A DNA stretch of 64,000 nt from Thermodesulfobacteriota bacterium (GTDB lineage: Bacteria; Desulfobacterota; Desulfobacteria; Desulfobacterales; SURF-7), in the NCBI GenBank assembly GCA_049320885.1, contig JBMORA010000014.1, positions 85,612-149,611 of the forward strand. Direction: 5' to 3'. Position 1 is the stretch's first letter, and each line of letters opens with the position of its first letter. Under the pieces are notes generated by a model. That model saw nothing but the letters and a program-made list of their open reading frames with translations. It searched no databases and was not told the DNA's origin. Position numbers and translations under genes: made by a program. Below, one piece after another: positions 5,082 to 58,889 of the stretch.

Positions 5082-5088
5082 GGAAAAG

Positions 5089-5724: not shown

Positions 5725-5727
5725 ACC

Positions 5728-6462: not shown

Positions 6463-6466
6463 TCAA

Positions 6467-22005: not shown

Positions 22006-22017
22006 GCGCGCCGGATC

Positions 22018-22926: not shown

Positions 22927-22980
22927 AGTTTATTTTCCTGGAAAAAACGGCTTTACAAGGGTGTGGATACCGGAAGCACC

Positions 22981-23017
22981 ATCAGGGGCAGGCCCTGCTG
23001 GCAGGCCCGCCCCTGAT
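22981..23017. other. GC-rich intergenic hairpin between livK and livH
   Basis: ATCAGGGGC...GCCCCTGAT arms. Confidence 0.55.
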
Positions 23018-23034
23018 TCCATAAACGCCGGATG

Positions 23035-24168: not shown

Positions 24169-24407
24169 TGCCGCCTCCTCGCGCAATAAAATTGTTTAGG
24201 GATAACAGGAATCTTTCTCGGTTTGATTGGGTCCACTATAATGATATGGCCGGTGTGAGTCAAGCTGAAAACAAGCCTTTCCCGAGGCCCTGAAAATATC
24301 CTTGCCGTTTGAGCAAATCCTTATTACCATTGTCGATCAATCCGGTTGGTCCCGATGAATCCCGATCATCTGGAAGGCGCATGAACAAATCAGGAGGGAT
24401 GGTATCC

Positions 24408-26485: not shown

Positions 26486-28256
26486 TGCTGGAAGTGTCCT
26501 GTTTTCTGCGATCGATGAGAGCGGTAAAAAGCCGGTCAAGACCCAACTCGGCGGCTTTATCACGCGTTGGCCGGCCTTTTGGATCAAGTCCCCGGACAAG
26601 GTAATAATTGGCCCTGGCGGTGAGAAAAGCACGGCGATCGATGGGCGGACGGTCTCCGTCAGCTTCAAAAAAACGACCCGGCAGATCATCGTCCTTGTCG
26701 TCAAATCCATTGGCCGCATTCATTATCCGTTCCTGGTATACAATTCTTTCCCCCGTTTTCAAAAGGTCATGGGCCGACGTTTCCATGCCGGTTACCGCTT
26801 CGAAAACTTTGGCGTATTCTTCCAGGGAAGCGGCAAAAAAAATGAATTTGCAGGCAGTGAGGGAGTCCACGACGGCATTTAGGTCTTCGCTGATTTTGAT
26901 GATGCGGGCCTTTCCTTCAAAGGAAAGACGGTTGGTGGCAACGGGTTTTCGCAGGATCTCATGGCTGATCGGATAGGCCCGCAGATGACAGGCGCCGCGG
27001 TTGGAGACGGCGAAAGCCAGGGCCATGCCGTATGCCCCGCGGGGATCATAGGCCGAAAGTTCCAGATTCTTGACCGTCATGGCGGCTTCCGGTCGGCGGC
27101 AGGCGCGGGCATACCGGGCCGATCCTTGGCCCAGCAGGCGACCCGGCGTTCTTCCATAACCGATGTCTGCCAGCAAGGCCGGAATGAGATCCGGGGAAAG
27201 CCTTTTGTCAAGGATTTCCGAATGGCAGGCAAGGGTTGCCGCCGCCGAAATCGTATCCATACCGAGATCGTTGCAGATTCGATTCGCTTCCATCACCGTT
27301 TCCAGCCGTTCGTTTTCCAGAAGCGCGCTGAAATGGGACATGGTTTCGAATTCGGGCAGCGGCAGCCCCTTTTCCGAACGCTGTTTGCAGCGGATATGGC
27401 AGCCGCGGCAGCCCGTCCGCACGGGGTTGTATTGTCGATGATAGGCATGGGCGTTCATCGCCGGCGCATGGGAGAATCTCGTTTTACGGAAATTCCGCGT
27501 GGGCATCATATGGCGGGAATCCATGAGATCATAAAGTGCGGCGGTGCCGAAATTCGAAATCCCGAATCGGCCGGACAGGGCCGGCGATGCGGACACCAGG
27601 CGGTATATGTCCTGGCTGGCCGTCCGCAGCAATGCGGCATCCTTTACGGCTGTTCGGCCGTGGCCGCTCACGGTGATGTATTTCAGGTTTTTTTCCGCAA
27701 AGACCAGTCCGAGACCGTTGCGTCCGACCGCAAAATGACCGTCCACCATGATATTGGCGAATAAGACCCGATTTTCAGCCGCCGGCCCGACTGCAGCCAG
27801 GGAACCTTTGGTTTTCAGGATTTGAAAAACAGCCGTCGTGCCCTGTCCGGCGAGGGCGGATGCATCCGTGATGACCAGGCGGTTGTCGGTGATTTCGATG
27901 CCACAGAGGCGCGGGGCTTTGCCGGTGATCATCAGGCCGTCAAACCCGGCGTTTTTCATGGCCGTGCCGAAAGTTCCACCCACCGATGCATCGGTGACGG
28001 TTCCGGTGAGCGGCGAGCGTGACATGAAGACCATGCGTCCGGATGTGGGGGATGCGGTTCCCACCAGGGGGCCGGTGAGCAGAATCACCGGCATGGCCGG
28101 ATCATCCCAGGTGCGGGTGATGAAGGGGGCCAGTAAATGACCGCCGAGGCCCCGTCCGCCGATGAAACGATGCAACAGGGACGGCGGCGGTTCCTCGACT
28201 TCCCATTTTCCGGTTGTCAGATCGATCCGGGCGATCCGCCCTTGCCAGCCAAACAT
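26469..28256 (-). CDS. Aldehyde:ferredoxin oxidoreductase family (W/Mo-pterin)
   Basis: GGRGLG, CRGCHIRC, PEFET, GMDTIS, NRGACH, DSLTACKF. Confidence 0.92.
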   Translation of the reverse strand: MFGWQGRIARIDLTTGKWEVEEPPPSLLHRFIGGRGLGGHLLAPFITRTWDDPAMPVILLTGPLVGTASPTSGRMVFMSRSPLTGTVTDASVGGTFGTAMKNAGFDGLMITGKAPRLCGIEITDNRLVITDASALAGQGTTAVFQILKTKGSLAAVGPAAENRVLFANIMVDGHFAVGRNGLGLVFAEKNLKYITVSGHGRTAVKDAALLRTASQDIYRLVSASPALSGRFGISNFGTAALYDLMDSRHMMPTRNFRKTRFSHAPAMNAHAYHRQYNPVRTGCRGCHIRCKQRSEKGLPLPEFETMSHFSALLENERLETVMEANRICNDLGMDTISAAATLACHSEILDKRLSPDLIPALLADIGYGRTPGRLLGQGSARYARACRRPEAAMTVKNLELSAYDPRGAYGMALAFAVSNRGACHLRAYPISHEILRKPVATNRLSFEGKARIIKISEDLNAVVDSLTACKFIFFAASLEEYAKVFEAVTGMETSAHDLLKTGERIVYQERIMNAANGFDDKDDDLPGRFFEADGDRPPIDRRAFLTARANYYLVRGLDPKGRPTRDKAAELGLDRLFTALIDRRKQDTSSNEPDV

Positions 28257-42221: not shown

Positions 42222-42345
42222 CGTTTCCCGAAACCGCCGGGACGGCTCCCTGTGAAAAACGAAATGAGACGTTCACGGCCCGTTGATTGCAAGCGCTTTT
42301 CGACTCCCAACATGAATGCGCTCCGACTGCCGGCAATGTGATGAA

Positions 42346-44772
42346 ATGATATCCGAAGAAGAAAAATCCGAAGAACGCAGGCAACAGACAGGCAGCCGTT
42401 TCTGGGTGGGATTGAATCTGCTCTTGTTTCCCATCCCCTCCCATTTCGCCCTGTTACGGGCCAGGGATTTCTCGCTGAAAAAGAGCTTTCTGCATCTCGG
42501 CATGACCGCCGTGTTGCTGGCTGTCCTCGCGGGGGCCGCCCTGCTGCAGATCCTGTTTCCGACGATCGGCCGCCTGTGGATGATCCTGCCGATTCTTTCG
42601 GGAATACTCGTGGCGGTGCTGAACCGCCGAACCATCGCGCAGTTTCAGCCCATGCAGTCTGTTTCCCTGGATCGACGCCAGGCGGTGGCGCTATTGCTGT
42701 TCCTGATCGTATTGACTGTCATCCACATCCTGCCGGAGGTGGATTTGATCGAATTGCAGCACGGCCAGGCGGAGACATCCACCGAGTGGATGCGGGAGCT
42801 TCCGCTGTGGCAAAGCGCCGTCATTCTCGCCATCGGAACGCTTATCGTGCTGGCGGGGTATGTCACCGGCACGACAGCCGTTTTTTCTCTCAACCGGATC
42901 ATCATTCTGTACGCCTGCTTTATCGTGATCGCCTCACAGATCGGCATCATCCTGTTGTTTGCCTGTCGATGGCTTCATCTCACGGGTGGGTTTCCGATGG
43001 AGCTTACGGCGGTTTCACTGGCCGCGGTTTTGGCGTTGGACTACCGGGATGCGACGACCTTCGGGCAGTTCACGAGGCGGTATGCGCTTTTGACCTGCAC
43101 CAAGGGGCTGTCGTTCCTTTTTTTGTGGCTCTGCTTTTTGGGCCTGCCGCAAAAAACCGCTTCCGCCTACCTGTCGTATTATCATAACCAGGCAAAATTC
43201 CTGCCCATGGAGATACCCTATGACAGCCTGATTTTCACGGACCGGGATCGGTTTGAGAACGGCCACAAGGCACTTTCCCGATTACGAAAGTTGTTCGCCG
43301 AATCCCTGCTGGGTAACCGCCCGGAAATGGCCGGCCGGATCATCCGGATCATGCAGGGGCAGGAAGCGCAATTGCTTCCCGCTGGTGACGATGTCTGGCG
43401 TTTGAAAGAACTGCTGGAAGCCGGGACATTTCCCAACACCGCTTTGTCAACCGGGGAGATTCCCTTTTTCCGTCCGGTGGCGGGCGCATGGGATGTTTTC
43501 ATGACCGCCCTGATCCGGCAGGGCGATCTTTCGGCCGCCGATGTTTCCGAAATCATCGCGGGATTTAAAGCTCTTCTGCCCAAATCCTCCGAAGGGCATC
43601 TGCCGGAGCTGGATTCGACCTACGATATTCATTATGTGGCCATGGCCACCGGCGCCGCTCTTGATTTTCTGCCCCCAACCATGCCGAACATCGAATGGCT
43701 TCTGGCAAGAAAGCGGATTCCCGTTCTGGCGCTGCCCTTCAGCGGCGAGACCCGCTGGGGCGCGCTGTTGGTGATCGACAAACCGGCCGGCATCGCCTGG
43801 TTCCGGGTGGCAACGGATAATGCCATGGAAAAAGCGATTCAGGCTCATTTTGATGCAAGTTCATCCGGCCGGCACCGGGAGGTCATCCTCACCCACCTGA
43901 TGGTTCCCATGGCGCTCACCCATCTGGAAGCCATCGTGCCGCATATCGGTGAGCCCATCGCCGTTCTGGGCAAGGAGGGCCTGGGCGCCGACCTGCCGGA
44001 AGGCCTGACTGGCCGAGCCCTCGAGGACATCCGGCAGTCCATGAGTCTGGTTTCCCGCGCCCAGCGTTCCCTGGAAAGCATTTCCGGCCAGACGATTCCC
44101 GAACCGGGTTCGGATTACGCCCGTTATATGCGATCCCTGGTGCGGCTGTATGACCTGATCTCGCCGAAAAACCTGGATTTCAATCTGCTGCCCGATCCGA
44201 AGAGATTCAACTCGGCTGAAAGCTGGCCGTCCAGGCTTCAACAGGCGGAAGATCTGGTACGGGCGATGGGCGGCTTGCGCGATATGGACCGCATCCCCAT
44301 GGTCCGCTACCTGCTGGACAACAAGCTGGCGCAATCGGCGCCGGGGCTGTTCATGCGTCTGGCGGCGCCGGCTCCGGTGTCATCGAACATGGTGGGGTGC
44401 GGTGACGCTTTCGATATCGGCCGCCGGCTCTTTTTGATGGGCCATTATCAGGAGGCCATGGATTACTTTGTCATTGCCCATAACCGGCATCCCTATGATT
44501 CCGCGTACGAAATCTGGTATCATTTGGCTCGATTGAAACTGCAGCGGGACCTGCCCGATTTCCGGTCCCTGCCGGAGAGACAGCCGGGGCCCTGGCTCTA
44601 TTACCGCACGCTCCTGGATATCCGGGAAGGCAAATCCGCGACGGCGCGGAAACGCCTGGAGAAGGCCGTGGAAAGGGACAGTCACGACTGCATGGCCAAT
44701 CATCTCCTGGAAACGTATTTTCAAAAACCGTTGGATGAAAGGTATTTTTTTCCTTCACCGGAGGGATTATAG
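42346..44772 (+). CDS. Multi-TM membrane protein with soluble domain and C-terminal TPR-like region
   Basis: About 8 hydrophobic helices at the N-terminus; TPR-like C-terminus. Confidence 0.7.
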   Translation: MISEEEKSEERRQQTGSRFWVGLNLLLFPIPSHFALLRARDFSLKKSFLHLGMTAVLLAVLAGAALLQILFPTIGRLWMILPILSGILVAVLNRRTIAQFQPMQSVSLDRRQAVALLLFLIVLTVIHILPEVDLIELQHGQAETSTEWMRELPLWQSAVILAIGTLIVLAGYVTGTTAVFSLNRIIILYACFIVIASQIGIILLFACRWLHLTGGFPMELTAVSLAAVLALDYRDATTFGQFTRRYALLTCTKGLSFLFLWLCFLGLPQKTASAYLSYYHNQAKFLPMEIPYDSLIFTDRDRFENGHKALSRLRKLFAESLLGNRPEMAGRIIRIMQGQEAQLLPAGDDVWRLKELLEAGTFPNTALSTGEIPFFRPVAGAWDVFMTALIRQGDLSAADVSEIIAGFKALLPKSSEGHLPELDSTYDIHYVAMATGAALDFLPPTMPNIEWLLARKRIPVLALPFSGETRWGALLVIDKPAGIAWFRVATDNAMEKAIQAHFDASSSGRHREVILTHLMVPMALTHLEAIVPHIGEPIAVLGKEGLGADLPEGLTGRALEDIRQSMSLVSRAQRSLESISGQTIPEPGSDYARYMRSLVRLYDLISPKNLDFNLLPDPKRFNSAESWPSRLQQAEDLVRAMGGLRDMDRIPMVRYLLDNKLAQSAPGLFMRLAAPAPVSSNMVGCGDAFDIGRRLFLMGHYQEAMDYFVIAHNRHPYDSAYEIWYHLARLKLQRDLPDFRSLPERQPGPWLYYRTLLDIREGKSATARKRLEKAVERDSHDCMANHLLETYFQKPLDERYFFPSPEGL

Positions 44773-47048
44773 TGAAACCGGGCAATCCACTGAGCGGATG
44801 GAAACTCACCGTTTATACTTTGTTTCTCGGACCGATCTTTCTCTGCCTGCACCTCTGGCAATATCGGAAAACCTATCCGCTGATCCGATTCCTGGTGACG
44901 TTGCCGCCCGCGGTTCTGCTGCTCTGCGCCTGGCTCGCCGTCTCTCTTTCCGCCAGCCCCAATTGGATCATCCTCCTGTATATTTTTTTGCTGGCGGTCA
45001 TTTTCGCTGCGGTGTTTATCTTCTCTTGGACCGTGGCGTCGGCGAACAAATCCCGGGAATCCTCGCCCCGTCCGAAAATTCTTTTCTCCAGGGGCATCGC
45101 CTGGATGACGTTCATGGGAACCGTATTTTTCAGCCTTGCCCAGGCCGTCCAGATCATCAATTACTGGGTTTTCGGCGAATACGTCATGGTGTATTTCTCG
45201 TCGACCGGTGGACCATTCAGCTCATGGGTTCTGGTAGGTCTGATATTCGGTTTTATCTACGGAATAGATGCAACCAACCAGTACTTCAACCGGGATATGA
45301 AAACCTTCGGGATTTCATTGGCGCTGGTTTTCCTGCTGATCCTGGTTTTCAGCATCGTTACGCTTTTTCTGGTGGTGTATCCGCTGCAGCGGCTGGCGCC
45401 GATTTCATATACGCCGCAAACCGCCGATGTCGCGTTTTACATTATCAACGGGTTGTCGATACTGCTGGCCGTTTTGTTTTTCCTGCCCGGAGGCGTGCAC
45501 ACCGGCATGCGGAAAACCGTCCTCGTAGTCATGGCCGCCGTGCCTATGATCATGCTGCACGCCATTGTTTTGTCGGGGTACGCCACCACCCTGAACCTGA
45601 TTGCGGCCTCGATCCTGGAGGAACGGGGACAACTGAATGCCGCGAAGGAACGGTACGCGAAAACCATCCCGTACATCGATTACGATCCGTTGCTGGCTTC
45701 CTTGCACCACCGGCAGGGAGTATTGAATGTCCTCAACGAAAACTACGACGCGGCGGAGGCTTCGTTCAAAAAGGTGATTGCGGACTATTCCGAGGGGTTC
45801 GATGTTTACAGCAAGGCAAGCCGGTATGTGGAAAGCTACCGGAAAAACAGATCGATGCCGGAAGGCGGCAGAAAGATTCTTTCGGTCCGTCACCGGACCT
45901 TCGAACAAGCGGCATCCTGTTTCCCCAATTCCCTGTCGGTGATTCTGAATTTTTATGAAACCACCCCCATCAGCACCCGCAAGTTGAGTTATGCCATCAA
46001 GGAGGGTTTCAGCCAGGGGACGTTCATCTGGAAGGTGGAGGCTTTTTTGCACCAGCGGGATTACCGGCTGATGACCACCTTTTGGGAAAGAAAGGAAACC
46101 CTGATAGACCTGTTGGAGGCCGGTTTTCCGGTCTTGATCTATGTTCCCGGGCATGTCTATACGCTGTACGGATATGATGCGCGGATGGAAATATTCTTCT
46201 GCTACAATACGGCGAAACGCAATCGCTGGGATGATGCGCCGTTTTTCGAGTTTCAGCGTGACTGGATGGAGGGTGGATTTCTGATGAGCGTGGTGGTGAA
46301 AAAGGGAGAAGAACAAAAACTGGCGGCCATCGTCCCCGGGATGATTCGGCATTCCGCTTCTCACCAGCTGTATCAAAAAGCCATGATCAGCGATTACTAT
46401 GCGCAAAAGGACAACTATTGGGAAGACGGCGACCGGCATCAAATCGCGGAAGGGCTCGGTGTGGACGCGCTGAAGCTCAATCAGGAGGAGCTGCATGCGA
46501 ACGGATTTCGATATTTGCCGTGGAATGAACAACAATGGCGGGAAGAACTGGCCCCGGACCTGACCGAAAAATGGTCCATTCAATGGGACCAGATCGAACG
46601 TCACGCGATCTATCTTCTCTTTCACCGACAGGTGGAAACGGCCCGGCGGCTGGTTCAGCAATACCAGAACCATTCCAATGAAGATGGCTATCGGAATGAC
46701 GACCGTCTCCTGGAATTGAGTCTGGCCGTGGAAATAGCGGACGGGAATCACGACGAGGCCCTGTCGCTTTCCGACAAGATCATCGGTAAAACGGGCCGCC
46801 ATGAGGATGGCATCAGCTGGGGACACTACTTCAAGGCGGCCAATCTGCTGGAAAAAGGCGAACTGAAGCGCGCCGCCGATCTGTTGCTGCCCCTGCTCGA
46901 TAAAATCGATCTCGGATATACCTCATCCGAGGCGAACGCCCGCAGCATCCTGGTGCTTCTCGCCAAAATACAGCAACGCCAGCCTTCCCTGATCGAACCG
47001 GATAAAGCCCGTTTGCTGGATATTTACCGGATCAGGTTCGCCATGTAA
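44772..47048 (+). CDS. Multi-TM protein with TPR and C39-like cysteine peptidase domain
   Basis: TM helices; QAASCFPNSL...GHVYTLYGYD...YN papain-like motifs. Confidence 0.7.
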   Translation: MKPGNPLSGWKLTVYTLFLGPIFLCLHLWQYRKTYPLIRFLVTLPPAVLLLCAWLAVSLSASPNWIILLYIFLLAVIFAAVFIFSWTVASANKSRESSPRPKILFSRGIAWMTFMGTVFFSLAQAVQIINYWVFGEYVMVYFSSTGGPFSSWVLVGLIFGFIYGIDATNQYFNRDMKTFGISLALVFLLILVFSIVTLFLVVYPLQRLAPISYTPQTADVAFYIINGLSILLAVLFFLPGGVHTGMRKTVLVVMAAVPMIMLHAIVLSGYATTLNLIAASILEERGQLNAAKERYAKTIPYIDYDPLLASLHHRQGVLNVLNENYDAAEASFKKVIADYSEGFDVYSKASRYVESYRKNRSMPEGGRKILSVRHRTFEQAASCFPNSLSVILNFYETTPISTRKLSYAIKEGFSQGTFIWKVEAFLHQRDYRLMTTFWERKETLIDLLEAGFPVLIYVPGHVYTLYGYDARMEIFFCYNTAKRNRWDDAPFFEFQRDWMEGGFLMSVVVKKGEEQKLAAIVPGMIRHSASHQLYQKAMISDYYAQKDNYWEDGDRHQIAEGLGVDALKLNQEELHANGFRYLPWNEQQWREELAPDLTEKWSIQWDQIERHAIYLLFHRQVETARRLVQQYQNHSNEDGYRNDDRLLELSLAVEIADGNHDEALSLSDKIIGKTGRHEDGISWGHYFKAANLLEKGELKRAADLLLPLLDKIDLGYTSSEANARSILVLLAKIQQRQPSLIEPDKARLLDIYRIRFAM

Positions 47049-47132: not shown

Positions 47133-48269
47133 TCATTTGCTCTGCCACCACCGGAAAAGCCGGAAATCCTCCACCATCCGCGGCTCTTTTTTCAGAAAGG
47201 CCAGGGGGGGAACCACGTTCAGTTCCTTGATATCCCGCGGGGAAGAGGAGCGCGCCAGGGCGTTCAGGTTGGCGAGCATGGTGGCGGACATTCGTGCGCG
47301 CGTATCGGCATCCGCGGTGGCGCTGTGGGGCGTGAAAATAAAACGCAGCTCCGGTCTGTCCATCGCAATCCTGCGGAATTCTTCCAGCGTGGCAGCCGGC
47401 AGGGGTTCGTCCTCGTAAACATCCAACGCCAGATGGATGGCGATATCCCTGTTTTTCAAGAGCCGGATCAGGGCGGAAGTGTCGACGATCCCGCCCCTTG
47501 CGGTATTGACCAGCAGGGCGTGGGGCCGCATGAGCTGGAGCAGATGTTCGCCGACATAATGATGGGTGTTTTCATCCAGGGGGATGTGGATGGAAATGAT
47601 GTCGGCGCTCTTGAAGAGCTGTTCGACATCCTCGTAATAGGTCAGATTCGGATAGGTTTCCTCCATTTCAGGGCTTTGGAAAATATCGCTGTAGGCGATG
47701 TGGATGCCCCAGGGAGCCACCCGGCGCACCACTTCCCTTCCGATTTCACCGAGACCGAGGATGCCGTAGGTAAGGTTTTCGGTGTTCTTGCCGATATGGC
47801 GGTCGAGCTCCCATTTTTCACCGGGCGCCCATTGACCGTTCCAGACATGGTTGTTGAGGCCGACGATATTGCGCAGATTGGCGAGGATCAGCGAAACGGT
47901 GTAGTCGGCGATGGTGCCGGCAAGAACACCGGGTGTGTTGGTGACGATGACTCCCGGATGGAGATGGATGTGGTTCCAGCCGACATTGCTGGTGCTGACC
48001 GCCTTGACGCTGGGAATGGAAAGGATTTCCTCGGTGATCTGGTGTCCCAGGTGGCAGCCGATGAAATCAGCCTCCATTTGCGTAACCGTTCGAATGATTT
48101 CCTCCTCGGAAGGAAAGCGGCTTCCGGCCACGACCACCTCGGCGGCGGTATTGAGATTGCTCCAGGCTTTATTGATCATGTATTTATACTTCACCGAAAC
48201 CTTCGGGTTGTCGGCGATCTCCCGGAAGACGGGGGATGCCAGATACACTACGGGTGTTTTTCCGCCCAT
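47133..48269 (-). CDS. D-isomer-specific 2-hydroxyacid dehydrogenase (glyoxylate/hydroxypyruvate reductase-like)
   Basis: NTPGVL, GLGEIG, NTARGG, DVYEDEP, TPHSA. Confidence 0.9.
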   Translation of the reverse strand: MGGKTPVVYLASPVFREIADNPKVSVKYKYMINKAWSNLNTAAEVVVAGSRFPSEEEIIRTVTQMEADFIGCHLGHQITEEILSIPSVKAVSTSNVGWNHIHLHPGVIVTNTPGVLAGTIADYTVSLILANLRNIVGLNNHVWNGQWAPGEKWELDRHIGKNTENLTYGILGLGEIGREVVRRVAPWGIHIAYSDIFQSPEMEETYPNLTYYEDVEQLFKSADIISIHIPLDENTHHYVGEHLLQLMRPHALLVNTARGGIVDTSALIRLLKNRDIAIHLALDVYEDEPLPAATLEEFRRIAMDRPELRFIFTPHSATADADTRARMSATMLANLNALARSSSPRDIKELNVVPPLAFLKKEPRMVEDFRLFRWWQSK

Positions 48270-48287
48270 GATGATCCTCCCTGCTCT

Positions 48288-49739
48288 TTATTTTGGTTCA
48301 GGCCAGTTTTTGATGACCCGGTTGCGGGCGTCCATGATGGAGATGGATACGATGTGATCGCCGTCCAGGCGATGCGTCGCACAGCTGATTCAGGGGTCGT
48401 AGGCGCGCACCGCCATTTCGATCCGGTTCAGGATCCCCTCCGTTACGTTACCGTCATGAATCAAGGCCCGCGCCGCCTGCTTGACGCTCAGATTCATGGG
48501 CCCTAGATTGTGGGTGGTGCCGACAATCATGTTTGCGCGGGTGATCAGGCCGTTCCGGTCGGTGGAATAGTCATGGATCAGGGTTCCACGGGGGGCCTCC
48601 ACGCATCCGACCCCGCGGCCGGCGCCGGGTTCATAGGGTGCCCGGATATCGGGATCGGTGATGTCCGGATCACTCAGAATTTCAATGGCGCGTTCACCGG
48701 CGGCGACCCCCTCGATCAGCCGGGCGTAGTGATAGAGCAGCGTGGCCTGGGCCGGCCGGCCGAAGAGGGAACGGAATTCCTCCAGCTCGGCCTGGGCCTT
48801 CGGGGTGGCCATGCGATCGCAGACATTGATGCGCGCCAGGGTGTTGGAACGGTAGATTCCTTTCGGCTTATCCACATCCAGGTCGAAGCCCTCATTCCAG
48901 CAGCGGGCGTAGGGAAACTTGCCGTAAGAGTAAGGTTCCACATGCTCGCCCAGGTAGTCGGCATAGTCCCGGGCTTCGAAATCCGTATAGGTGCCATCGG
49001 GTTTCATCAGGCGCAGTTTGCCGTCATACAGATTGTGAGCGCCGTTCGCATCCACCGTGCCGATGAAACCGGTGGTGATGACCCCCAGGGTCTTGATGGT
49101 GTCCATGTACTTCGGAAAAACGTTTTTCTTGGCGAAGTCCAGGGAAAACATTGAAAATTCCAGAACCTGCTTCATTTTATCCAGAATTTCCCGGCGTTCT
49201 TCCTCCAGCATGGGCTTGGAAAATCCTCCGGGCACTCCGGCAACGGGGTGTATGGTTTTACGCGAAAACCGGTCCAGAATCATTTTGACCAGATATCGTG
49301 TCTTGATGACCTGCTGGGCCAGTTCCGGGTTCGCCTTGGCGATGCCGACCACGTTGCGCACGGAGTAATCGGCATCCGGGCCGATGACGAAATCGGGGGC
49401 GGCGAGAAAATAGAAGTTCAACAGCTTGTCTTCCACATGTGCGATGGACTGCATCAGTTCGCGCAACTTGTGACCGGCCGGAGGCGGCGTGACTCCGAAG
49501 CAGCTGTCCACGGCCTTGTTGGAGGCCAGATGGTGCATCCAGGGACAGATGCCGCAAATCCGGCAGACGATGTCCGGGAGTTCCTCGGCCGGTTTGCCTT
49601 CGACAAATTTTTCGAAACCCCGGAGGGACATGTAGTTCACCCGGGCATCCTGATAGTTGCCCGCGTCGTCCAGCCAGATGTTGATGGACGCATGCCCCTC
49701 GATACGGGTGATCGGTTGAATGGTGATGGCCTTGGTCAT
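48288..49739 (-). CDS. mvhA: [NiFeSe] hydrogenase large subunit, MvhA/VhuA type; Sec at UGA 48390-48392 (483 aa)
   Basis: RIEGH, L1 RICGIC; readthrough gives L2 RAYDP-U-ISCATH plus tail to TAA 48288-48290. Confidence 0.92.
48357..48373 (-). promoter_or_regulatory. SECIS hairpin of mvhA
   Basis: ATCGCC-TGGAC-GGCGAT after a 16-nt spacer from the UGA. Confidence 0.8.
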
Positions 49740-49740
49740 G

Positions 49741-50685
49741 TCAGCTCGATCTCCTTTCGCGGCTAACCGGTGATTTCAGCAAGCCATGGGCTCCTGAAAA
49801 ACGGAGCAGCAGGGGGTTGTTGGGAATGGATTTCATATCAATGCCGTTGGAGGCCAGGGCGTTCAGCATGTCCAGAAGTTGATTGCCCTCATGGCGCACC
49901 GGGCCGTAACATCCGCGACAGGGAACCCTGGCTGAAATACAACGCGGAGTGACGGCGTCGCCGCCGCATCCCGCGCGGGTAACCGGTCCCATGCACAGGA
50001 AGCCCTGTTCCAGCAGGCAGCGCATGTTTTCGAGGGGCTCACCCGGAGCGCCGTACTGGGGGGCCGTCAGGAAACGCCTGACTTTTTTCAAATCGCCCTT
50101 GCCCTGGCGCACGGTGGGACAAGTGTCGCATACGCTTTTGGTAGGCACCGCAAGGGGCTTTCCCTGCACGAGGGCGACCAGCGCGGAAAAGATATGATCC
50201 GGGTGGGGGGGGCAGCCGGGCAGATGGATGTCCACCTTGATTTTTTCATCCAGGGCGTAGCAGGCGTCGAGGAGCGGTGGAATGCCGTCGGACGGATATG
50301 CATCCGGCCGGTCGGTGGTTTCGGTGGAATAAACGCGTTCCATGATCTCGTCCACCGCATAGGTGTTGGCCAGGGAAGGGATGCCGCCGTGGGTGGCGCA
50401 GGTTCCCAGGGCGATGATGAGGCCGCATTTTTTGCGCATTTCCAGCGCCACTTCCAGATGCTCCTCATTGCGAATGCCGCCGCTGATGATCCCCACATCC
50501 GCCTCCGGCAGGGATAGATGTTGCTGGTCTCCGCGTTGCCCGTAATATTTGCTGTCCACCAGCGCAGGAAGGTGGACGATGTCCGCCACGGCCAGAATGT
50601 CGAGCAATCGCTCGCCGGTGTCGATGATGGAGATTTCGCATCCGGAGCATGAATTCAACCATTCACTTGAAACTCGGACTCCCAT
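49741..50685 (-). CDS. mvhG: F420-non-reducing hydrogenase small subunit MvhG
   Basis: CSGCEIS, GTCATHGG, PGCPP, CMGPVTRAGC, VPCRGC. Confidence 0.9.
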   Translation of the reverse strand: MGVRVSSEWLNSCSGCEISIIDTGERLLDILAVADIVHLPALVDSKYYGQRGDQQHLSLPEADVGIISGGIRNEEHLEVALEMRKKCGLIIALGTCATHGGIPSLANTYAVDEIMERVYSTETTDRPDAYPSDGIPPLLDACYALDEKIKVDIHLPGCPPHPDHIFSALVALVQGKPLAVPTKSVCDTCPTVRQGKGDLKKVRRFLTAPQYGAPGEPLENMRCLLEQGFLCMGPVTRAGCGGDAVTPRCISARVPCRGCYGPVRHEGNQLLDMLNALASNGIDMKSIPNNPLLLRFSGAHGLLKSPVSRERRSS

Positions 50686-50718
50686 GGTTGTTGCCTCCTG
50701 TTACCAATGAAGTATCGT

Positions 50719-51837
50719 TTATCCCTTTACCCGTACTCCCTTTTTGCCGAGTTTCCGTCTGGCCTGCTGGGCGTTCCGGCGCTTGCGGGCTGATGAAGTC
50801 CGGACCAGGGTCAAGGCCCGGGTGGCGAATTCGGCATTGTCTCTAGCGCTGTGTTCCTCGATGGCGCCCGCGCCCCGGGCATCGGCGAAAGCAGCTCTTC
50901 CCAGGGGCGAACGGGTGATGACGGTGGTCCAGCCTTCCTCGGCGCCGAGACCGCCGAAGGAAATGTCGGCGAATTCCGAGGAGTAGTCCGGACAGAAGCT
51001 GCAGGCGAAACGCCGGATTCCCAGCAATTCAGACATGGCGATATGCCGGATTTCGCCGTTTTTGAGATGCACCATCAAATCGTCTTTGATATTGATTTTG
51101 CGCACTTCATTCCAGTCAAACCCGCCGGAATTCGACAGGGCGCGGCGTTCGGTCTCCCCGAAAAGGAAGTTGCCCGAACAGAACAGACCGAGGCAGAATT
51201 TGATGTTTTCCGAGGGAACCAGGCCCAGGGTCTGCATGCGGCGCACGGATTTGATCTGGCAGGGAGTACCCACCAGGGCGACCCGCTTCAGTCCTTTCTT
51301 CATGACCGGATCAAATTCCTCAATGGTGGAAAACGTCTGGTACTGGTCGCTGAAATTTTTCATCCCATGGGAGGTGTCGAAAAAAAAGCCGGCGGCCTCC
51401 TTGATCTCCTCGGTGGAGGTAGCCAGGAAGGGCCGGCGCTGAAAGGACCCGGATTGTTTGGTGACGATGGCGCCGTCGATGCGGCCGCGCTCGAAAAGAT
51501 GCAAAAGGAGGGCCGTCACGACGCCCCCGTCGGTGGCGTTCTTGCGAACCGCCGCATCCCCGGAACGGGCCACGGTGGTTTCGATGATCCGGCCCATGGG
51601 CGCGGTCCAGCCTGCCCGCTCGATGGTTTCGGCTTCCAGTTCGTCGACTTCCGGGCAGATGGCATGGCAGAGGCCGCACTCGATGCATTTCTCGATTTCG
51701 CCGTAGCGCGGTTTGCCGTCTTTATCCAGGTCGAGGGCGCCGTAATTCACGGCGCTGCAGAAGGTGACGCAGCCGCCGCAACGGTGACACAGGCCCGGTT
51801 TCTGTACATCCTGAATCAGGTCGAAAAAGGTTTTCAT
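50719..51837 (-). CDS. FrhB/FdhB-like flavo-Fe-S protein with N-terminal ferredoxin
   Basis: CHRCGGC, CIECGLC, DGGVVTALL, VGTPCQ, GLFC. Confidence 0.85.
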   Translation of the reverse strand: MKTFFDLIQDVQKPGLCHRCGGCVTFCSAVNYGALDLDKDGKPRYGEIEKCIECGLCHAICPEVDELEAETIERAGWTAPMGRIIETTVARSGDAAVRKNATDGGVVTALLLHLFERGRIDGAIVTKQSGSFQRRPFLATSTEEIKEAAGFFFDTSHGMKNFSDQYQTFSTIEEFDPVMKKGLKRVALVGTPCQIKSVRRMQTLGLVPSENIKFCLGLFCSGNFLFGETERRALSNSGGFDWNEVRKINIKDDLMVHLKNGEIRHIAMSELLGIRRFACSFCPDYSSEFADISFGGLGAEEGWTTVITRSPLGRAAFADARGAGAIEEHSARDNAEFATRALTLVRTSSARKRRNAQQARRKLGKKGVRVKG

Positions 51838-51874
51838 ACCCGCTCCTTTTCGAAAATGTCCGCGCAAGCAGGGT

Positions 51875-53173
51875 TTACAGGCCGACCGTCATCAAATCCG
51901 GCCCGAGGTAAGCCCTTTCGTTTTCACCCAGGATCCCCATGGCAAGACAGATGATGGTCCACAGGTGAACCGTATGGTATTTACCGTTAAAGTGCTCGTT
52001 CAGATCATGAATCTGGGAGTGACAATTGTGGCAGGGCGCGATGCAATACTCCGCCCCGGTGGCCTCGATCTGGTCGAACTTGATTTTGCCGAAGGTTCGG
52101 CGGGACTCCGCATATCCTGCCTGCAAGGCCCCGCCGCCACCGCCACAGCAGTAGTTGTTGGAGCGGTTGGGGGTCATGTCCACGAAGTTTTCCTCGCCCA
52201 CCGTTTTCTTGATGACGAAGCGCAGATCCTCGGCATAGGCGTCGCCGTATGTCTTGCGCACCTGATTGCAGGGATCCTGGGCCGTGAATTTGACCTTCAG
52301 GTTCCGATTCCAGTCGGAGTCGACCCTCAGGCGGCCTTCGCGGATCCATTGAGCGTAGAGCTGCACGATGGTGGTGATTTCGAATTTGTGGGGGATGTTG
52401 AATTTTTTCAGTCCGGCCCGGACTGCAAAGAGTTCATGCCCTCACTCCGTGTTGACCCAGTATTTGCACCCCAGGTCGTCCACGGCCTTGGCCTTGATGC
52501 GTACGATACGCTCCCAGTTTTCATCGTCGGCCAGGAACATGCAGTAGTTTTCGGCGGCCCAGCCTTTGGTGGAGTAAGTCCAGTCCGCGCCCACGAAGTG
52601 CATGATCTTCCAGAGGGGCACCATCTCATCGGGCTCGGTGACCGGTTCCCGGGAGTTCTGGTTCAGAAAGAACTCGGCTCCGGCCTTGTTGATGGGCGCC
52701 GTCAGGTTTTCCCAGCCGGGCTGGCTGGAGCGGACCTCCTCGAGGACATCTTCCACCACCATGCGGAAATCGTCTTGCTTGGCGCCCATGGCGCTGCAAC
52801 CCTCGTCGAGGAGCGCCATATCGCAGGAGGAGCGGATTCCCTTGGGGCGGGTATCCCTGGGCCAGCTCTTGCGGGCGTGATAAACGAGCTGGGGGATGTC
52901 GATTTTCATCGGGCAGACATAAATGCAGCGCCAGCAGAGGGTGCAGTTCCAGACCCACTCGCTTTTCAAAATTTGTTCATCCAGGCCCATGACGGCCATG
53001 CGCAGGAACCTGCGGGGATCCATGTCCGCCAGGCCGGTGGCCGGGCAGCCGGAGGCGCAGGCGCCGCAGGTCAGGCAGGCGTTGAGATTCCCGCCGTCGG
53101 GCAGGAGCTGCATGACCTTATCCTTGAAGATGCTTTTGTTTTCTTTTCCGATTTTGACGGGTTGGACGGTCAT
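51875..53173 (-). CDS. HdrD/DsrK-like Fe-S/CCG-domain protein; Sec at UGA 52442-52444 (432 aa)
   Basis: Two CxxCxxCxxxCP motifs; NTE-U-GHE (ECGH equivalent) joins two ORFs in frame; CCGGGG, PCHNC. Confidence 0.88.
52409..52425 (-). promoter_or_regulatory. SECIS hairpin of the HdrD-like gene
   Basis: CAGTCC-GGGCC-GGACTG after a 16-nt spacer from the UGA. Confidence 0.8.
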
Positions 53174-53179
53174 GGTCCC

Positions 53180-53638
53180 TCACCTCCCTTCGGCTTCGGC
53201 ACGCACTTCCGGCGCGGCCGTTTTTCGGCGGCCCATGGGGTTGGGCCCCAGGGCGCGGATCTTTTCGGTGAAACGGGTGACGATTTCGGCGAATCTGGGC
53301 GCTTCGGCGGACGAGACCCATTCGACGGCAAAGCGTTCCGGGTCCACGCCCTGGATTTCAAGCACGATTTTGGCGGCTTCACTGCGGTTCAAGGCTTTGT
53401 GATTACCCTCCAGGTAATGACATTCGCCGAGATGTCAGCCCATAATGATGACGCCGTCGGCCCCGCGGTTGAAGGCCTCCAGCACGATATCGGGGTGGAC
53501 CATGCCGGAGCACATGACCCGCACGGCGCGCATGTTGGACGGGTATTGCAGCCTGCCGACACCCGCCAGATCCCCACCGGCATAGGCGCACCAGTTGCAG
53601 AGAAATCCCAGGATGACCGGTTCGAATTTTTCAGCCAT
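53180..53638 (-). CDS. mvhD: MvhD [2Fe-2S] subunit; Sec at UGA 53435-53437 (152 aa)
   Basis: FLCNWCAY, VMCSG, G-U-HLGECHY, EWVSSAE. Confidence 0.92.
53402..53418 (-). promoter_or_regulatory. SECIS hairpin of mvhD
   Basis: ATTACC-TGGAG-GGTAAT after a 16-nt spacer from the UGA. Confidence 0.8.
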
Positions 53639-53676
53639 GATAGCGTTCTCCTTCATTAGTGAATTATGCCCGTAAT

Positions 53677-56600
53677 TCAGGCGGCATCTTCCAGGGCCGC
53701 AATGACCTGGGCCCGCAATTGATCCATCGTGAACCCGTGGACATAAACCCCGCCCTTGGGGCAGGTGGCCGAGCATAGACCGCAGCCCTTGCACAGGGCT
53801 TTTTCAGTGGCGATCCGCGCGCGGGTCCGGCCGTCATCGGTCTGGTATTCCGTCAGGGCGATGGCATTGTACGGGCAGACATCCAGGCACAGGGCGCATC
53901 CGTCGCATTTGTCGGTGACAAAGGATTTGATGGCGTCCAGGGTCATTTCCGTCTGGCACAGAACCACCGCCGCCCTGGCTGCCGCCGCCTTGGCCTGGGC
54001 GATGGTTTCATTCATCGGTTTCGGGTAGTTGCAAAGACCCGCGACAAAGAGTCCGTCCACGGACATATCCACCGGACGCAGTTTCGGGTGGGCCTCGTTG
54101 AGAAAACCGTCTGCATTGGCGGCGCACTTATAGAGCTCCACCAGCTCGTGGGTCTCGTTCGCCTCCATGGCCGCGGCCAGCACCACGCGGTCGGCCGCGA
54201 TGCTCATCGGCATGCGCAGGATGGGATCATAAATGTCCACGGCAAGTTCATCGCCGTCCCGGCGGACCACCGGTTTCCCTTCGGTTTCGTAGCGGATAAA
54301 GATCACGCCCAGATCCCTGGCCTGGCGATAGAGATCCTCGCGCTCACCGTAGGTGCGGATGTCGCGGAAAAGGACGTAGATGTTCATCTGCGGATTCAAG
54401 CCCTTGAGCTGAATGGCGGATTTGATGGAGTGGGTGCAGCAGATACGGCTGCAGTAGGGCCGGCGTTCGTCCCGGGAGCCGACGCACTGGATGAACACCA
54501 GACTGGGGATTTTCTTGATTGCCGCGGGATTGTCGCGCAGCAAGGCGTCCAGTTCCAAATGGGTTATGACGCGTTCATCCTGGCCGAAGAGGTATTCCTC
54601 CGGGCGGGATTCCCGGCCGCCCACCGCCAGCACGGCAACGCCGTAGGAAATTTCGCTTTGCCCGCCGTTTACCCGGATGTCGCTGGTGAAATTTCCCACG
54701 GACCCCTTGGCGGAAGCGAGGGCGGCGTTTGTGAACACCTGGATGCCGGGATGGGTTTCCACCTTACGGATGAGGTCTTCCAGGAAGGGGCGGACGGCCA
54801 GCCCCTGGTCGGTGGTGTTTATTTTCCAGGCGTTGCCGCCGAGCCGGTCGGACTTTTCCAGCAGAACGGCTGGAAAATTCTGCTCGGCCAGGCTCAGGGC
54901 CGCCTGCATGCCGGCCACTCCGCCGCCGATGACCAGGGCCTTGGGGACGACGCTGATCCTGGTTCTCTCGATGGGCAGGCTCAGGGCGGCCTTGGCCGCC
55001 GCGATCCGCACCTGATCCTTGGCCTTGGCCGTGGCCATTTCCGGCTCCCGTTGGTGGACCCAGGCGTTTTGATTGCGGATATTGGCCATTTCCACCAGAT
55101 ACGGGTTCAGGCCCGTCTCCTGGAGGGTTTCCTGGAACAGGGACTCATGGGTGCGCGGCGTGCAGGCGGCGATGACGATCCGGTTCAGGGAGTTTTCCTG
55201 AATCTTTTTGGCCATCATTTCCTGGGTGTCGGCCGAGCAGCTGAAAAGGTTGTTTTCCACAAGCACCACATGGGGCAGGCTTCGGGCGTATTCGGCAACT
55301 TCATCCACGTTGATGATTCCCGCGATGTTGATGCCGCAGGAGCAGATGAACACGCCGATGCGGACTTCCTCGCCGGCGATGTCCCGCTCGGCGGGATAGG
55401 TTTTGCGGCTGGTCAGATCCCCCCGCGAGCGAATCAGGGCCGTGGCCGCCTCCAGGGCGGCGGTGGAGGCTTCGGTCACCGCCCGCGGAATCGCCTTGGG
55501 GGTCTGGAAGGCGCCGGCCACATAGATCCCCTGCCGGTTGGTGCAGGCCGGGGAGAAATCCGAGGTTTTGGCGAAACGATACTGGTTCAGATCCAGGCGG
55601 AACAAATCCGCCAGTTGCTTGCCGTCTGCCGTGGCCTCCAGCCCCACGGACAGCACCACCATGTCGAATTCGTCGATCCGGATGCTCCCGTCCTCGTCGG
55701 CATAGCGCATGGTTACGCCGCAGTTGTCCGCTCCCGCCTCGATGGAGTGGGGCCGGGCCCTGACAAAGCGGACTCCCTTGGCTTTGGCGCTTTCGTAAAA
55801 GCGATCGAAATCCTTGCCGTGACTGCGGATATCCATGTAGAAAATGCTTTGCCGCAGTCCGTCGCCTTGGACATGTTCGGCGGTGACCAGGGCCTCCTTG
55901 ATGGCGTACATGCAGCAGACGCTGGAGCAGTAACCGTTGTCGCAGCGGTTGGTGTTGCGTGAACCCACGCACTGGATCCAGGCGATGCTGCGGGGTTCCT
56001 TGTGATCGGAGGGCCGCACCAGGTGGCCCATGCAGGGGCCGCCGGAGGACAGCAGGCGCTCATATTCCATGCTGGTGACCACGTCCGGAATTTTGCCGTA
56101 CCCGTAAAAGTCGAATCCGGACGGATCGAAAGGTTTGAAGCCCGGCGACAGGATGACGGCGCCGACATTCAGATCGGTGATTTCCTCCCGGTCCTCAAAA
56201 TTGATGGCGGAAGTGGGGCAGAATTTCTCGCAGGCCTTGCATTTTCCCCGGGTGAGATAGATGCAGGTTTCACCATCGATGGCGTATTTCAAGGGCACGG
56301 CCTGGCCGTAGCGGATGTAGGCGGCGGTGCGCTGGTTCAACCCCATGTTGAATTCGTCTTTCACCTTGCGGGGGCATTTCTGGGCGCACAGCCCGCAGGC
56401 GATGCATTTTTCCATGTCGATATAGCGGGGATTTTTTTTGACCTTGACGACGAAGTTTCCGATTTCTCCCGATACAGCCACTACTTCCGACAGCGTCAGG
56501 AGGTTCACATTGGAATGCCGGCCGACCTCGACCAGTTTGGGGGAGATGATTCACATGGCGCAGTCGTTGGTCGGGAAGGTTTTGTCCAGCTGGGCCATGG

Positions 56601-57000
56601 CACCGCCGATGCCGGCGGTTTTTTCCACCAGGTGAACGAAATAGCCGGAGTTGGCCAGATCCAGCGTCGCCTGAATACCGGCGATGCCGCCACCCACTAC
56701 CAATACCGATCCGATGGGCTTTGCTGACATAGGCACCTCTTTGGGATTGTGGTGAAGAGTTGGGGCGATTGCGGAATCACCCATGGCAGGGGATGCTTCA
56801 CTGTCGGTGATCTCCCGCAGGATATTCTCGGAAATGCCGTGTTCCCGGCAAAAGTCCAGGAACAGGTGTTGATCGATCAGGTATTTCTTGCCCACCGTGG
56901 CGGAGGCCTTCAGTTTTCCGGACTGGATCCAGTTCGTCACGGTATTGCGATGCACGCCCAGTTTTCGGGCGAGTCTGCCGACACGGAATGCCATCTGCAT
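53677..57000 (-). CDS. hdrA: Large heterodisulfide reductase subunit A with N-terminal HTH; Sec at UGA 56551-56553; alternative start 56730
   Basis: [27 protein letters not shown], two IQCVGSR repeats, [10 protein letters not shown]-terminal ferredoxin; in-frame HTH at 57000-56731. Confidence 0.9.
56518..56535 (-). promoter_or_regulatory. SECIS hairpin of hdrA
   Basis: CTGGTCG-AGGT-CGGCCGG (with G-U pairs), loop at +23. Confidence 0.72.
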
Positions 57001-57023
57001 AGACAACTCCTTCCGCTCGTTGT

Positions 57024-57509
57024 TCAGCCGATCTCCCGCATGATCCGCGCGCACATGCGCGGCACGGCCGATTGGACCGGCTCTGAAAGTCCGACCGTGA
57101 CCTCGTCGGGCAGGTTTGGGGCCTGGACCACCAATACTTTCACCTCCACCGGACATTCTTCCTTCAGTTCCTTGAGCATGTTCGTGGTGGGAAACTGGTG
57201 CGGGGAGAAGTCGCCGATTTTTTCCGGCTGGATTTCCCCGATGTCGATTTCCCGGATATCGCCGGCGTTGTAGCCCGCGGCGGTGGCGGCGTCGATAATG
57301 ATGATTTTCCGCGGTTTCCGGGGTGACAGCAGAATGTCGAAGAGGAGATCCCGGATGGAAGTGCCGCAGTCGATGGCCGTAACGGAGTCCGGCAGTTGGT
57401 GGTGTTCTTCCAGATGCTGAATCACCGCCGGTCCAAAGCCGTCATCCCCGATCAGGGGATTGCCGCAACCCAGAACCAGACAATCATAGTCGTAAATCGG
57501 CTTCAGCAT
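57024..57509 (-). CDS. Hydrogenase maturation endopeptidase (HycI/FrhD type)
   Basis: [23 protein letters not shown]. Confidence 0.9.
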
Positions 57510-57613
57510 ATTGTGCCATTTATGCCAAGTCAATAAGGCTTGTCAAGAAAAATGTGCAATTTGTGCAAAGGGCTTGCAAGGGTGGGTCGGCGGATGGTTT
57601 TCGGTTTCACGGA

Positions 57614-57704: not shown

Positions 57705-58559
57705 TTATGTGAACACTTTTTCCGCTACCGACCGTTTGGTTCCTTCGAGCTGGGGAACCTGGCTGTAGCCCATGCGTCGGATATCCGCACAGACGAGAGC
57801 GTCGAGCTTGCCGCGGGTGACGCCGATGCCGGCCCGCCGCAGGGCCTTGCAGAAGGCGTAGCTGAAGATGCCCCGGTGGACACCGCCGATGGCGGCCTCC
57901 GCTGAGGTTTGATAGTCACGGCAGCCGGCCCACAACACATGGTTTAATCCATCAACGATGACCAGTTCCCGTTCCCCCGGTTGCGGTTTCAGGATCCGCC
58001 GGGACGGAATGGTCGGATCCGAATCCAGGAAAAAGCCGTAATCCGGCGGCGGCTCGATATACCGGCAGGTCACCCGTTGCTCCTCGGGCGCGCCGGAGCG
58101 GGTGTCGAGTTCCCGGGTACCGGTGCCCGAATGGCAGGAATCCAGGATCACATCCAGGTTCACCCCGGCTGCCAGACCGCCGAAGATTTTCCGGAAATCA
58201 TCGTCCCGGATCATGCCGGCGGCGGCGTAATCATGCGGGCAGATGGTTTCATCCTTGGCGTCGATTTCATCGCCGCCGGTATCCGCGACCTGGGAGCCGT
58301 GGCCCGAGTAATGAAAAATCAGGGTGTCGCCTTTTTGGGCGCCCTTGATCAGCCATTTGAGACCTTCCAGGATGGCCGCCCGGGTGGCCCGGCGGTCCGT
58401 GAGGATGCGCATGGTCCCGGGTGTCGCCGGGACGATGCCGAGGGCGTTCAAGGTATGGGCGATATCTTTCACGTCATTGACACAACCTTGCAAATCCGGG
58501 CCGCCGGCGCCCACCGGCGAATAGTCGTTGATGCCCACCAATAGTGCTTTCTTCTTCAT
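57705..58559 (-). CDS. Caspase-family (metacaspase/C14) cysteine peptidase
   Basis: ALLVGINDY, YSGHG, DSCHSG dyad; SD AAGGAG. Confidence 0.92.
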   Translation of the reverse strand: MKKKALLVGINDYSPVGAGGPDLQGCVNDVKDIAHTLNALGIVPATPGTMRILTDRRATRAAILEGLKWLIKGAQKGDTLIFHYSGHGSQVADTGGDEIDAKDETICPHDYAAAGMIRDDDFRKIFGGLAAGVNLDVILDSCHSGTGTRELDTRSGAPEEQRVTCRYIEPPPDYGFFLDSDPTIPSRRILKPQPGERELVIVDGLNHVLWAGCRDYQTSAEAAIGGVHRGIFSYAFCKALRRAGIGVTRGKLDALVCADIRRMGYSQVPQLEGTKRSVAEKVFT

Positions 58560-58889
58560 GCGATTTCTCCTTTCCGATTGCGGGGTTGGTTTTGCTCGAT
58601 TGCCGACAGATGGTTGCCCAACGAGGAAAGAAAAATGCGCGGCGAACCCACGGGTCATCAGCGGGCTCCCGGTATGTTCCGGGGCGACCGTCGACTCCTG
58701 TTTGTTCCATGGCCCGAATCGCTCCAGGCCGGTGGCTGTTCGCCGGGTGGGAAGAAACTCAATGAATGCAATACGCGAAATGCAAATTCGTGGGGTAGGG
58801 TGTCGGTCTCGATTGTAATAAGGACGTAATGAACCCGTATGGCAAGAAACAAAAAAAATCAAGGGAAATTTCGCACGACCATGCCGATC

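Follow-up and report, generated by a model that had tools for sequence, protein, structure and literature searches.

The operon nearest to the one studied here was described by Zhang et al. (2006, PMC1794560) in Syntrophobacter and Desulfotalea; according to the accessible part of that paper, it encodes a GlpC (HdrD-like), an HdrA, an FrhD (MvhD) and an FrhA (MvhA), all four containing selenocysteine (Sec), together with an FrhG (MvhG). A 2026 review (PMC13188914) calls it, in the sections available, the "four-selenoprotein-gene operon" and terms the roles and interactions of Sec-HdrA and Sec-GlpC unclear, while the four selenoprotein families are all listed in the accessible text of PMC1976440. 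We analysed a stretch of 64,000 nucleotides (nt), called the window in what follows, which covers positions 85,612-149,611 of contig JBMORA010000014.1 (assembly GCA_049320885.1) of a Thermodesulfobacteriota bacterium (Desulfobacterales; SURF-7) whose genome, labelled G000 here, is 98.24% complete. Eight open reading frames (ORFs) stand in a row on the minus strand of this window, at 47133..57509, with intergenic gaps of 1-38 nt (Table 1). They contain the known gene set in another order, with an FrhB-like gene, a helix-turn-helix (HTH) domain fused to HdrA, and a repeated element at the predicted promoter which we read as the operator of that domain. The four-selenoprotein operon as such is already known; its HdrA-first form with FrhB, a fused HTH and a predicted repeat operator is new, within the literature searched and as far as the papers were accessible. 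We regard it as rather probable that the operon encodes an H2-linked, likely bifurcating Mvh-Hdr complex, and that the fused HTH exerts negative autoregulation on it.

The operon of Zhang et al. has the same five families as ours, Sec in the same four of them and also a tandem "hdrA-hdrA", so far as its published text is available (PMC1794560). It differs by its order, which is glpC-hdrA-frhD-frhG-frhA there and hdrA-mvhD-hdrD-frhB-mvhG-mvhA here, by the lack of the extra FrhB-like gene, and by its HdrD, since ours is of another subfamily, with 30-38% identity to the HdrD-first type; neither a fused HTH nor repeats are mentioned in the accessible text. The cluster mvhA2DG-hdrA1 of Desulfobacterium autotrophicum HRM2 likewise combines a Sec hydrogenase, a Sec-HdrA and a maturation gene, and bifurcation from H2 was proposed for it, but the available part of its description (PMC2702500) names no FrhB-like gene and no regulator. 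HdrD in place of HdrBC has been reported for another cluster (PMC5947623, accessible text). A preliminary description of our locus, made from the sequence alone, had called the operon "hidden"; this does not hold for the four-selenoprotein combination, which the accessible parts of PMC1794560 and PMC13188914 already contain. No description of a regulator for the operon was found in the literature searched, most subscription journals lying outside the search. An FrhB-containing order may, reportedly, be described by Pereira et al. (2011).

The same description had read the four ORF breaks as in-frame UGAs at conserved Cys positions of eight tightly spaced genes, had predicted that standard gene callers would fragment them, and had proposed as checks an alignment with Cys homologs, a look for the Sec machinery and a search for synteny. 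The breaks, their positions and the fragmentation were borne out. The four TGAs are where they were expected, and calling with genetic code table 11 splits exactly these four of the eight genes. At the corresponding positions, HdrA, MvhD and HdrD paralogs encoded elsewhere in G000 have Cys, and Cys-type MvhA homologs are present at two loci of our collection (L027 and L134). Among relatives, TGA occupies the Sec position in all of the 55 HdrA homologs that are 55% or more identical, and likewise in 32/32 close HdrD homologs. A hairpin of 6-7 bp, its loop beginning with GG at +25/+26, lies 3' of each of the four TGAs, and this hairpin, similar to a Sec insertion sequence, is kept in relatives. 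Under a strict hairpin rule two of the four Sec TGAs pass, against a background of 6 among 2365 other TGA-ended ORFs; under a relaxed rule, set post hoc once the outcome of the strict one was known, all four pass, none of the four real TGA stops of the operon does, and the background is 11 of 2365 genome-wide. The genome has selA, selB, selD and a tRNA-Sec, each over its cut-off, and selD itself contains a TGA. UGA recoding of the four operon proteins is well supported, with Sec as the presumed residue. In the Protein Data Bank (PDB), no structure of DsrK or HdrD was found whose alignment is informative at the Sec site. On contigs C1, C16, C18, C27 and C43 of the same genome there are, next to Cys-type copies, additional paralogs of HdrA, MvhD and HdrD in which the corresponding codon is TGA.

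The preliminary description had also named the HTH in front of HdrA, but it overlooked that the fusion is conserved, that a predicted repeat operator goes with it, and that a selC*/selB* pair lies elsewhere in the genome. In the order, 46/401 genomes encode a close MvhG (E of 1e-100 or lower); the loci of 49 of the 50 MvhG matches (window included), added to 80 named loci, gave 131 loci, 108 of them distinct, 10 FrhB loci whose hydrogenase core is missing or distant being left out of this number. A hidden Markov model search finds the HTH in 60/108 distinct loci, and in 59 of these 60 it is in frame with a protein of the operon: HdrA(Sec) in 38, HdrD(Sec) in 18, HdrD(Ile) in 2 and the C-terminus of the protease in 1, while the remaining one stops after 71 amino acids (aa). 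When the HTH alone is the query, 32/401 genomes of the phylum respond with one copy each, and the 30 loci examined all adjoin Hdr/Mvh genes. Of 376 metagenome matches, the best 80 include fusions to HdrA(Sec) (52), HdrA(Cys) (10), HdrD(Sec) (3) and HdrD(Cys) (1); of the others in this set, 8 reach the end of the contig and 6 stop soon after the HTH, four of those six being protease fusions. In a search of 1.84 billion representatives, the longer top single-domain matches bear HdrA, HdrD or protease sequence (60 of 150 inspected); many short matches are the HTH alone or fragments, and unrelated multi-copy HTH_17 proteins also score. The two HdrD fusions with Ile at the Sec/Cys site are at L108:1824-3038 and L119:4012-5226, with operator sites present. 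Protease, HTH and HdrA form one single open frame up to the Sec codon at L222, L223 and L232, and at L234, L241, L245, L247, L250-L252, L255, L258 and L260 the HTH is fused to an all-Cys HdrA subtype (DCASC) near hypD/hypE-like genes or a divergent second hydrogenase.

The full-length HTH-HdrA protein gave no matches as a query, which is to be expected because gene callers would cut it at the UGA. The UGA-truncated HTH product matched 85 proteins, and the database entries are a 149-aa "excisionase family DNA binding protein", exactly the truncated product; this reflects gene calling only, and the fusion accounts for a recurring database artefact. The PDB relatives of the domain are weak and comprise phage Xis, RacA and BldC (6AMA/6AMK for BldC, E 0.17-0.2). 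It shares the HTH_17 domain with the MerR-like winged HTHs of BldC, Xis and RacA (6AMA, 4J2N, 5I41), and with the BldC family also the lack of a coiled-coil dimerisation domain. BldC is a free protein of 68 residues, whereas the HTH here is fused to a redox subunit or a protease and tied to one operon.

A direct repeat GCACAA-N3-GCACAA, with a period of 9 bp, flanks the predicted promoter in front of the protease gene. Upstream of the protease genes of the collection, GCACA cores are spaced by 9 nt in 75 pairs, and any other spacing is found at most 15 times. The strict tandem is present in 50/57 promoters of HTH-positive operons versus 2/9 of HTH-negative ones, and its density in the former is 1.58 per promoter versus 0.08 in shuffles. 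The seven HTH-positive promoters which lack it still score 15.6-22.1 bits with a position weight matrix (PWM) trained without the sequence of the window. The two HTH-negative operons with strong sites have the HTH elsewhere in their genomes; the seven siteless ones (at most 10.7 bits) belong to genomes with no HTH match and stand at four separate places on a quick MvhA tree. Sites of at least 15 bits were found in 28/31 distinct loci of the HTH-anchored set, six of which had been in the PWM training, and in 52/60 metagenome loci that include 750 nt or more of upstream DNA, versus 9/2000 random windows. BldC itself binds direct repeats AATTXXXX(C) head-to-tail, according to the accessible text of PMC5859096, and our 9-nt unit reads AATT-TGTG-C on the other strand, as this consensus would have it. 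The HTH is thus likely a BldC/Xis-like autoregulator, and likely a repressor, acting on the operon's own predicted promoter: the repeat pairs bracket a conserved TTGACA and the second lies over the inferred -10/start region, so that repression is favoured. HTH domains, whether carried by full-length or by UGA-truncated HdrA, would bind head-to-tail on both pairs near -35/-10, and this binding would exert a negative feedback on the output of the operon. With a predicted regulator-operator pair defined to the base, the control of the cytoplasmic H2-Hdr module of sulfate reducers becomes testable. The third-best site of the genome (G000:C22:3304, 19.8 bits, just before TTGACG) was rejected as a member of the regulon, being a single site in front of an ORF which looks, on inspection by eye, like a transposase.

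What is regulated is likely a cytoplasmic complex of [NiFeSe]-Mvh hydrogenase and HdrA in a sulfate reducer, to judge from the predicted proteins; dsrA and hypD/hypE-like genes are present in the genome. MvhA, MvhG and MvhD have VhuA, VhuG and VhuD as top matches, all below the archaeal cut-offs; as in Mvh (group 3c) hydrogenases, a large subunit with both metal-binding motifs is encoded together with MvhG, MvhD and HdrA. Aligned with HdrA of the methanogen MvhAGD-HdrABC complex (5ODC, 8RVU), with which the operon shares MvhA/G/D, HdrA, the conserved flavin-side residues and the cluster ligands, our HdrA shows a permuted order: a flavin adenine dinucleotide (FAD) module 1 with an inserted ferredoxin, an iron-sulfur (Fe-S) domain of the N-terminal type, FAD module 2 and a C-terminal ferredoxin. 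Counted along the alignment, U60 corresponds to Cys197 of 5ODC_A, and E224/K278 to Glu356/Lys409; we take Cys197 to be a cluster ligand given across the dimer, and Glu356/Lys409 to be flavin-side residues. In module 1, E224, K278 and all cluster ligands are invariant in 55/55 HdrA. In module 2, Asp stands for Glu in 51/55 and the Lys is variable (41/55). HdrA is therefore likely a one-chain pseudo-dimer with one probable bifurcating flavin, unlike its methanogen counterpart, which is not such a permuted single-chain tandem and works in a host that is not a sulfate reducer. Flavin-based bifurcation by the complex is plausible from the conserved residues.

HdrD has two cubane motifs, and its Sec lies inside a reduced first CCG region; in the methanogen complex both CCG motifs of HdrB are complete and HdrC is a protein of its own, whereas here there is one chain with one full CCG. 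The preliminary label "HdrD/DsrK-like" survives in part: the protein is HdrD/GlpC-like, but membership of DsrK, TmcB or HmcF was rejected, the scores (118/400, 167/735 and 166/750 bits) being below all three cut-offs and none of the eight operon genes being a membrane partner. The FrhB-family protein resembles FrhB, FpoF and F420-reducing modules by its FrhB N- and C-terminal domains and its N-terminal ferredoxin; its Pfam domains are over cut-off, while it stays below all equivalog cut-offs (TIGR03289, 147 vs 331.5 bits). Unlike the hosts of F420-reducing hydrogenases (group 3a), the source genome gave no match for cofD and cofE and only a cofG below cut-off, and we therefore rejected F420 as the substrate of this protein. 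Electrons from H2 would pass through MvhA(Sec), MvhG, MvhD(Sec) and the C-terminal ferredoxin of HdrA to FAD module 1, which likely bifurcates them, as it keeps both flavin-side residues of methanogen HdrA. The high-potential branch would lead by the Sec-ligated cluster to HdrD and from there to a protein disulfide or trisulfide such as that of DsrC, a substrate suggested by the dsrA of the host and by work on DsrK; the low-potential branch would reduce ferredoxin. The FrhB-like protein would serve as an additional or alternative terminal module for two-electron transfer, using a carrier other than F420. A second FrhB-like gene, 54% identical, lies at G000:C9:63738-64835 (L026) without Hdr or hydrogenase neighbours.

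Among the 108 loci, 65 are complete from protease to MvhA, and every complete operon carries HdrD, FrhB or both. The HdrA-first variant, a common one in the Desulfobacterales, is found in 46/65, of which 22 have HdrD and FrhB as here, 19 FrhB only and 4 HdrD only, while one has neither inside the core and an FrhB after MvhA. The HdrD-first (published glpC-first) order is found in the other 19/65, all without FrhB. Cultured carriers include Desulfocicer vacuolatum DSM 3385 and Desulfamplus magnetovallimortis for the HdrA-first order, and Desulfogranum marinum and Desulfocarbo indianensis for the HdrD-first one. On the quick MvhA tree, 45 HdrA-first operons, the present one included, form one clade (Shimodaira-Hasegawa-like approximate likelihood ratio test, SH-aLRT, 100), and the HdrD-first order falls outside it. 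The claim that HdrD replaces HdrBC and that an FrhB is added is thus right for the present copy but not for the relatives at large, since 20/65 complete operons lack HdrD and yet have FrhB; such FrhB-only operons point to a non-F420 role of FrhB-family flavoproteins in bacteria. The D-2-hydroxyacid dehydrogenase, correctly identified in the preliminary description (PF02826) but counted there with the operon, follows MvhA in only 9/65 and was rejected as a core part: it is a lineage-specific add-on. No HdrB was found beside the 16 HTH-bearing HdrD-less operons (flanks down to 0.4 kb in two). The HTH-less, HdrD-less operons L023, L024 and L049 come after genes for a membrane Fe-S protein and an HdrB-like protein.

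Several points weigh against our reading of the complex and of its control. HdrD is absent in 20/65 operons, 18 of them without a nearby HdrB in the flanks examined, which means that the disulfide branch is not universal, and HdrD has only one complete CCG motif. For Syntrophobacter proteomes, the accessible part of PMC5947623 lists the hydrogenases Mvh1/Mvh2 as undetected in the conditions which that study used. As for the operator, the HTH-negative set is small (9) and the siteless genomes are 92-96% complete; 3/31 distinct HTH-anchored loci score below 15 bits; a site is found in just 4/8 metagenome HdrA(Cys) fusions whose flank was examined; and the counts are not independent trials, because the loci are related and partly redundant. 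Finally, a sigma-70 consensus scan made no call at the inferred promoter, so that the choice between a repressor and an activator rests on the position of the sites.

That the complex does not bifurcate, or mainly releases H2, is in our opinion doubtful. HdrA would then wire the hydrogenase to the FrhB-like flavoprotein, which would exchange hydride with NAD(P) or another carrier, HdrD being a side input. In this sense one can read the greater constancy of FrhB than of HdrD in HdrA-first operons (42/46 vs 26/46), the FrhB found directly behind HdrA without hydrogenase genes at L016-L018, and the Asp and variable Lys of FAD module 2. But module 1 retains its two flavin-side residues and its cluster ligands with no exceptions, and FrhB is absent from the entire HdrD-first clade.

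Negative autoregulation by the HTH, as we prefer to see it, could be given a further turn by selenium. Termination at the Sec UGA would free a 149-aa HTH repressor (about 305 aa in HdrD-first operons), and low selenium would shut the operon. Such a switch is possible because termination at the UGA, in operons with a Sec partner, must give a short HTH product. The partner's Sec TGA is the first stop after the HTH in 56/60 loci and in 55 of the best 80 metagenome loci; in two unrelated partners the HTH precedes the Sec in the chain; and the truncated product is itself in databases, though by way of gene calling. Against this, the Cys, Ile and protease fusions mostly keep the repeats (18.9 bits at L108 and L119), which means that UGA truncation is not needed for regulation; the fusions at L155, L157, L161, L162, L167-L169 and L171 keep sites of 15-26 bits; and a selC*/selB* pair could read the UGA as Cys, blunting the switch. 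We rejected a universal need for Sec truncation, the operator being kept with Cys, Ile and protease partners. It seems unlikely to us that the Sec codon is a selenium sensor, with a repressor freed when Sec insertion fails and the full-length form giving the feedback in Cys-type operons. If it were one, it would be a transcriptional switch based on UGA termination across Desulfobacterota, sparing the cell an unfinished four-selenium hydrogenase complex.

We also find it improbable that the HTH activates the operon, or that it regulates constitutively and became fused by a neutral accident of gene position, through the loss of a stop codon beside an adjacent gene. The variety of partners (three, and even triple protease-HTH-HdrA frames) would suit such an accident. 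A site just upstream of -35 is a position used by activators, and this is where repeat pair 1 stands. Moreover, an internal Shine-Dalgarno-like GAGGTG with an ATG at 56730 could yield an HdrA without HTH, and this start is retained in most HdrA fusions (4/38 have no Met in the linker, ATG only being considered). On the other side, repeat pair 2 overlies the inferred -10/start region, and free-standing HTH genes are nearly absent (1/60), which suggests a selection for tethering.

The selC*/selB* pair is at G000:C1:315730-317772, on another contig than the operon. Here an additional tRNA with a UCA anticodon, whose acceptor stem has 8 bp and which shows A1:U72 and U73, immediately precedes the gene of a second SelB, itself 31.6% identical to the main one. 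These tRNA features and the selB* downstream match the selC*/selB* of PMC5389517 (see also PMC7609411), both papers being accessible in part. We give little credit to a Sec/Cys mosaic in which a selC* tRNA-Cys(UCA)/SelB* backup would read the four UGAs partly as Cys, for, well as the pair fits that description, A1:U72 tRNAs are reported to require an altered synthetase (PMC5389517, accessible text) and cysS* (no anticodon-binding domain, PTVS motif) was not found in the source genome. A second cysteinyl-tRNA synthetase was rejected as cysS*, being full length, without the PTVS motif and fused to a cysteine synthase (L007:592-2871 on G000:C1, 759 aa). In the region G000:C1:310206-317772 (partly L002), a cassette hdrD...hdrA-mvhD with Cys throughout is divergent from the selC*-type tRNA(UCA) and the selB that follows it.

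Table 1. Predicted features of the operon and of its promoter region, in window coordinates, in the order of transcription.
Feature	Position	Strand	Basis or remark
Predicted operator, repeat pair 1 (two GCACA cores 9 bp apart)	57552..57569	-	28.0 bits, top PWM site genome-wide, 5 nt before TTGACA
Inferred -35 hexamer TTGACA	57541..57546	-	kept by close relatives between the repeat pairs; -10 imperfect
Predicted operator, repeat pair 2, over inferred -10/start	57511..57528	-	23.5 bits, second-best genome-wide, 1 nt before protease ATG
Hydrogenase maturation protease (HycI/FrhD-type), 161 aa	57024..57509	-	PF01750, TIGR00072 over cut-off
HTH_17 (excisionase/BldC-like) domain and linker, in frame with HdrA	56731..57000	-	PF12728 30.5 bits, cut-off 27
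Tandem HdrA, 1017 aa (1107 with HTH)	53677..56730	-	permuted match to 5ODC_A; motif conservation
HdrA Sec codon, NDCAM-U-IISP, codon 150 of the fusion, hairpin ~56518-56535	56551..56553	-	aligns with Cys197 of 5ODC_A
MvhD, Sec codon 53437-53435 (IMG-U-HLGECH)	53180..53638	-	PF02662 169.6 bits
HdrD/GlpC-like protein, Sec codon 52444-52442 (NTE-U-GH)	51875..53173	-	HdrC-like 2x[4Fe-4S] domain, one complete CCG motif
FrhB-family flavoprotein, N-terminal 2x[4Fe-4S] domain, 372 aa	50719..51837	-	PF04422, PF04432; PDB relatives
MvhG small subunit	49741..50685	-	top NCBIfam match VhuG, 226.9 bits, below cut-off 450
MvhA [NiFeSe] large subunit, RICGIC / DP-U-ISC motifs, C-terminal extension after ATH	48288..49739	-	Sec codon 48392-48390 (YDP-U-ISCATH)
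D-2-hydroxyacid dehydrogenase	47133..48269	-	PF02826

Around the operon, a caspase-family gene (Peptidase_C14; 57705-58862, minus strand) stands just upstream, a placement which is not kept in relatives, and two plus-strand genes (42316-44772 and 44772-47048) converge on its end, both coding for long proteins that are hydrophobic in the N-terminal part and match nothing in Pfam. The window also contains ordinary genes for pilMNOPQ, a branched-chain amino acid ABC transporter and an aldehyde ferredoxin oxidoreductase (3445-9475, 19315-24186 and 26469-28256).

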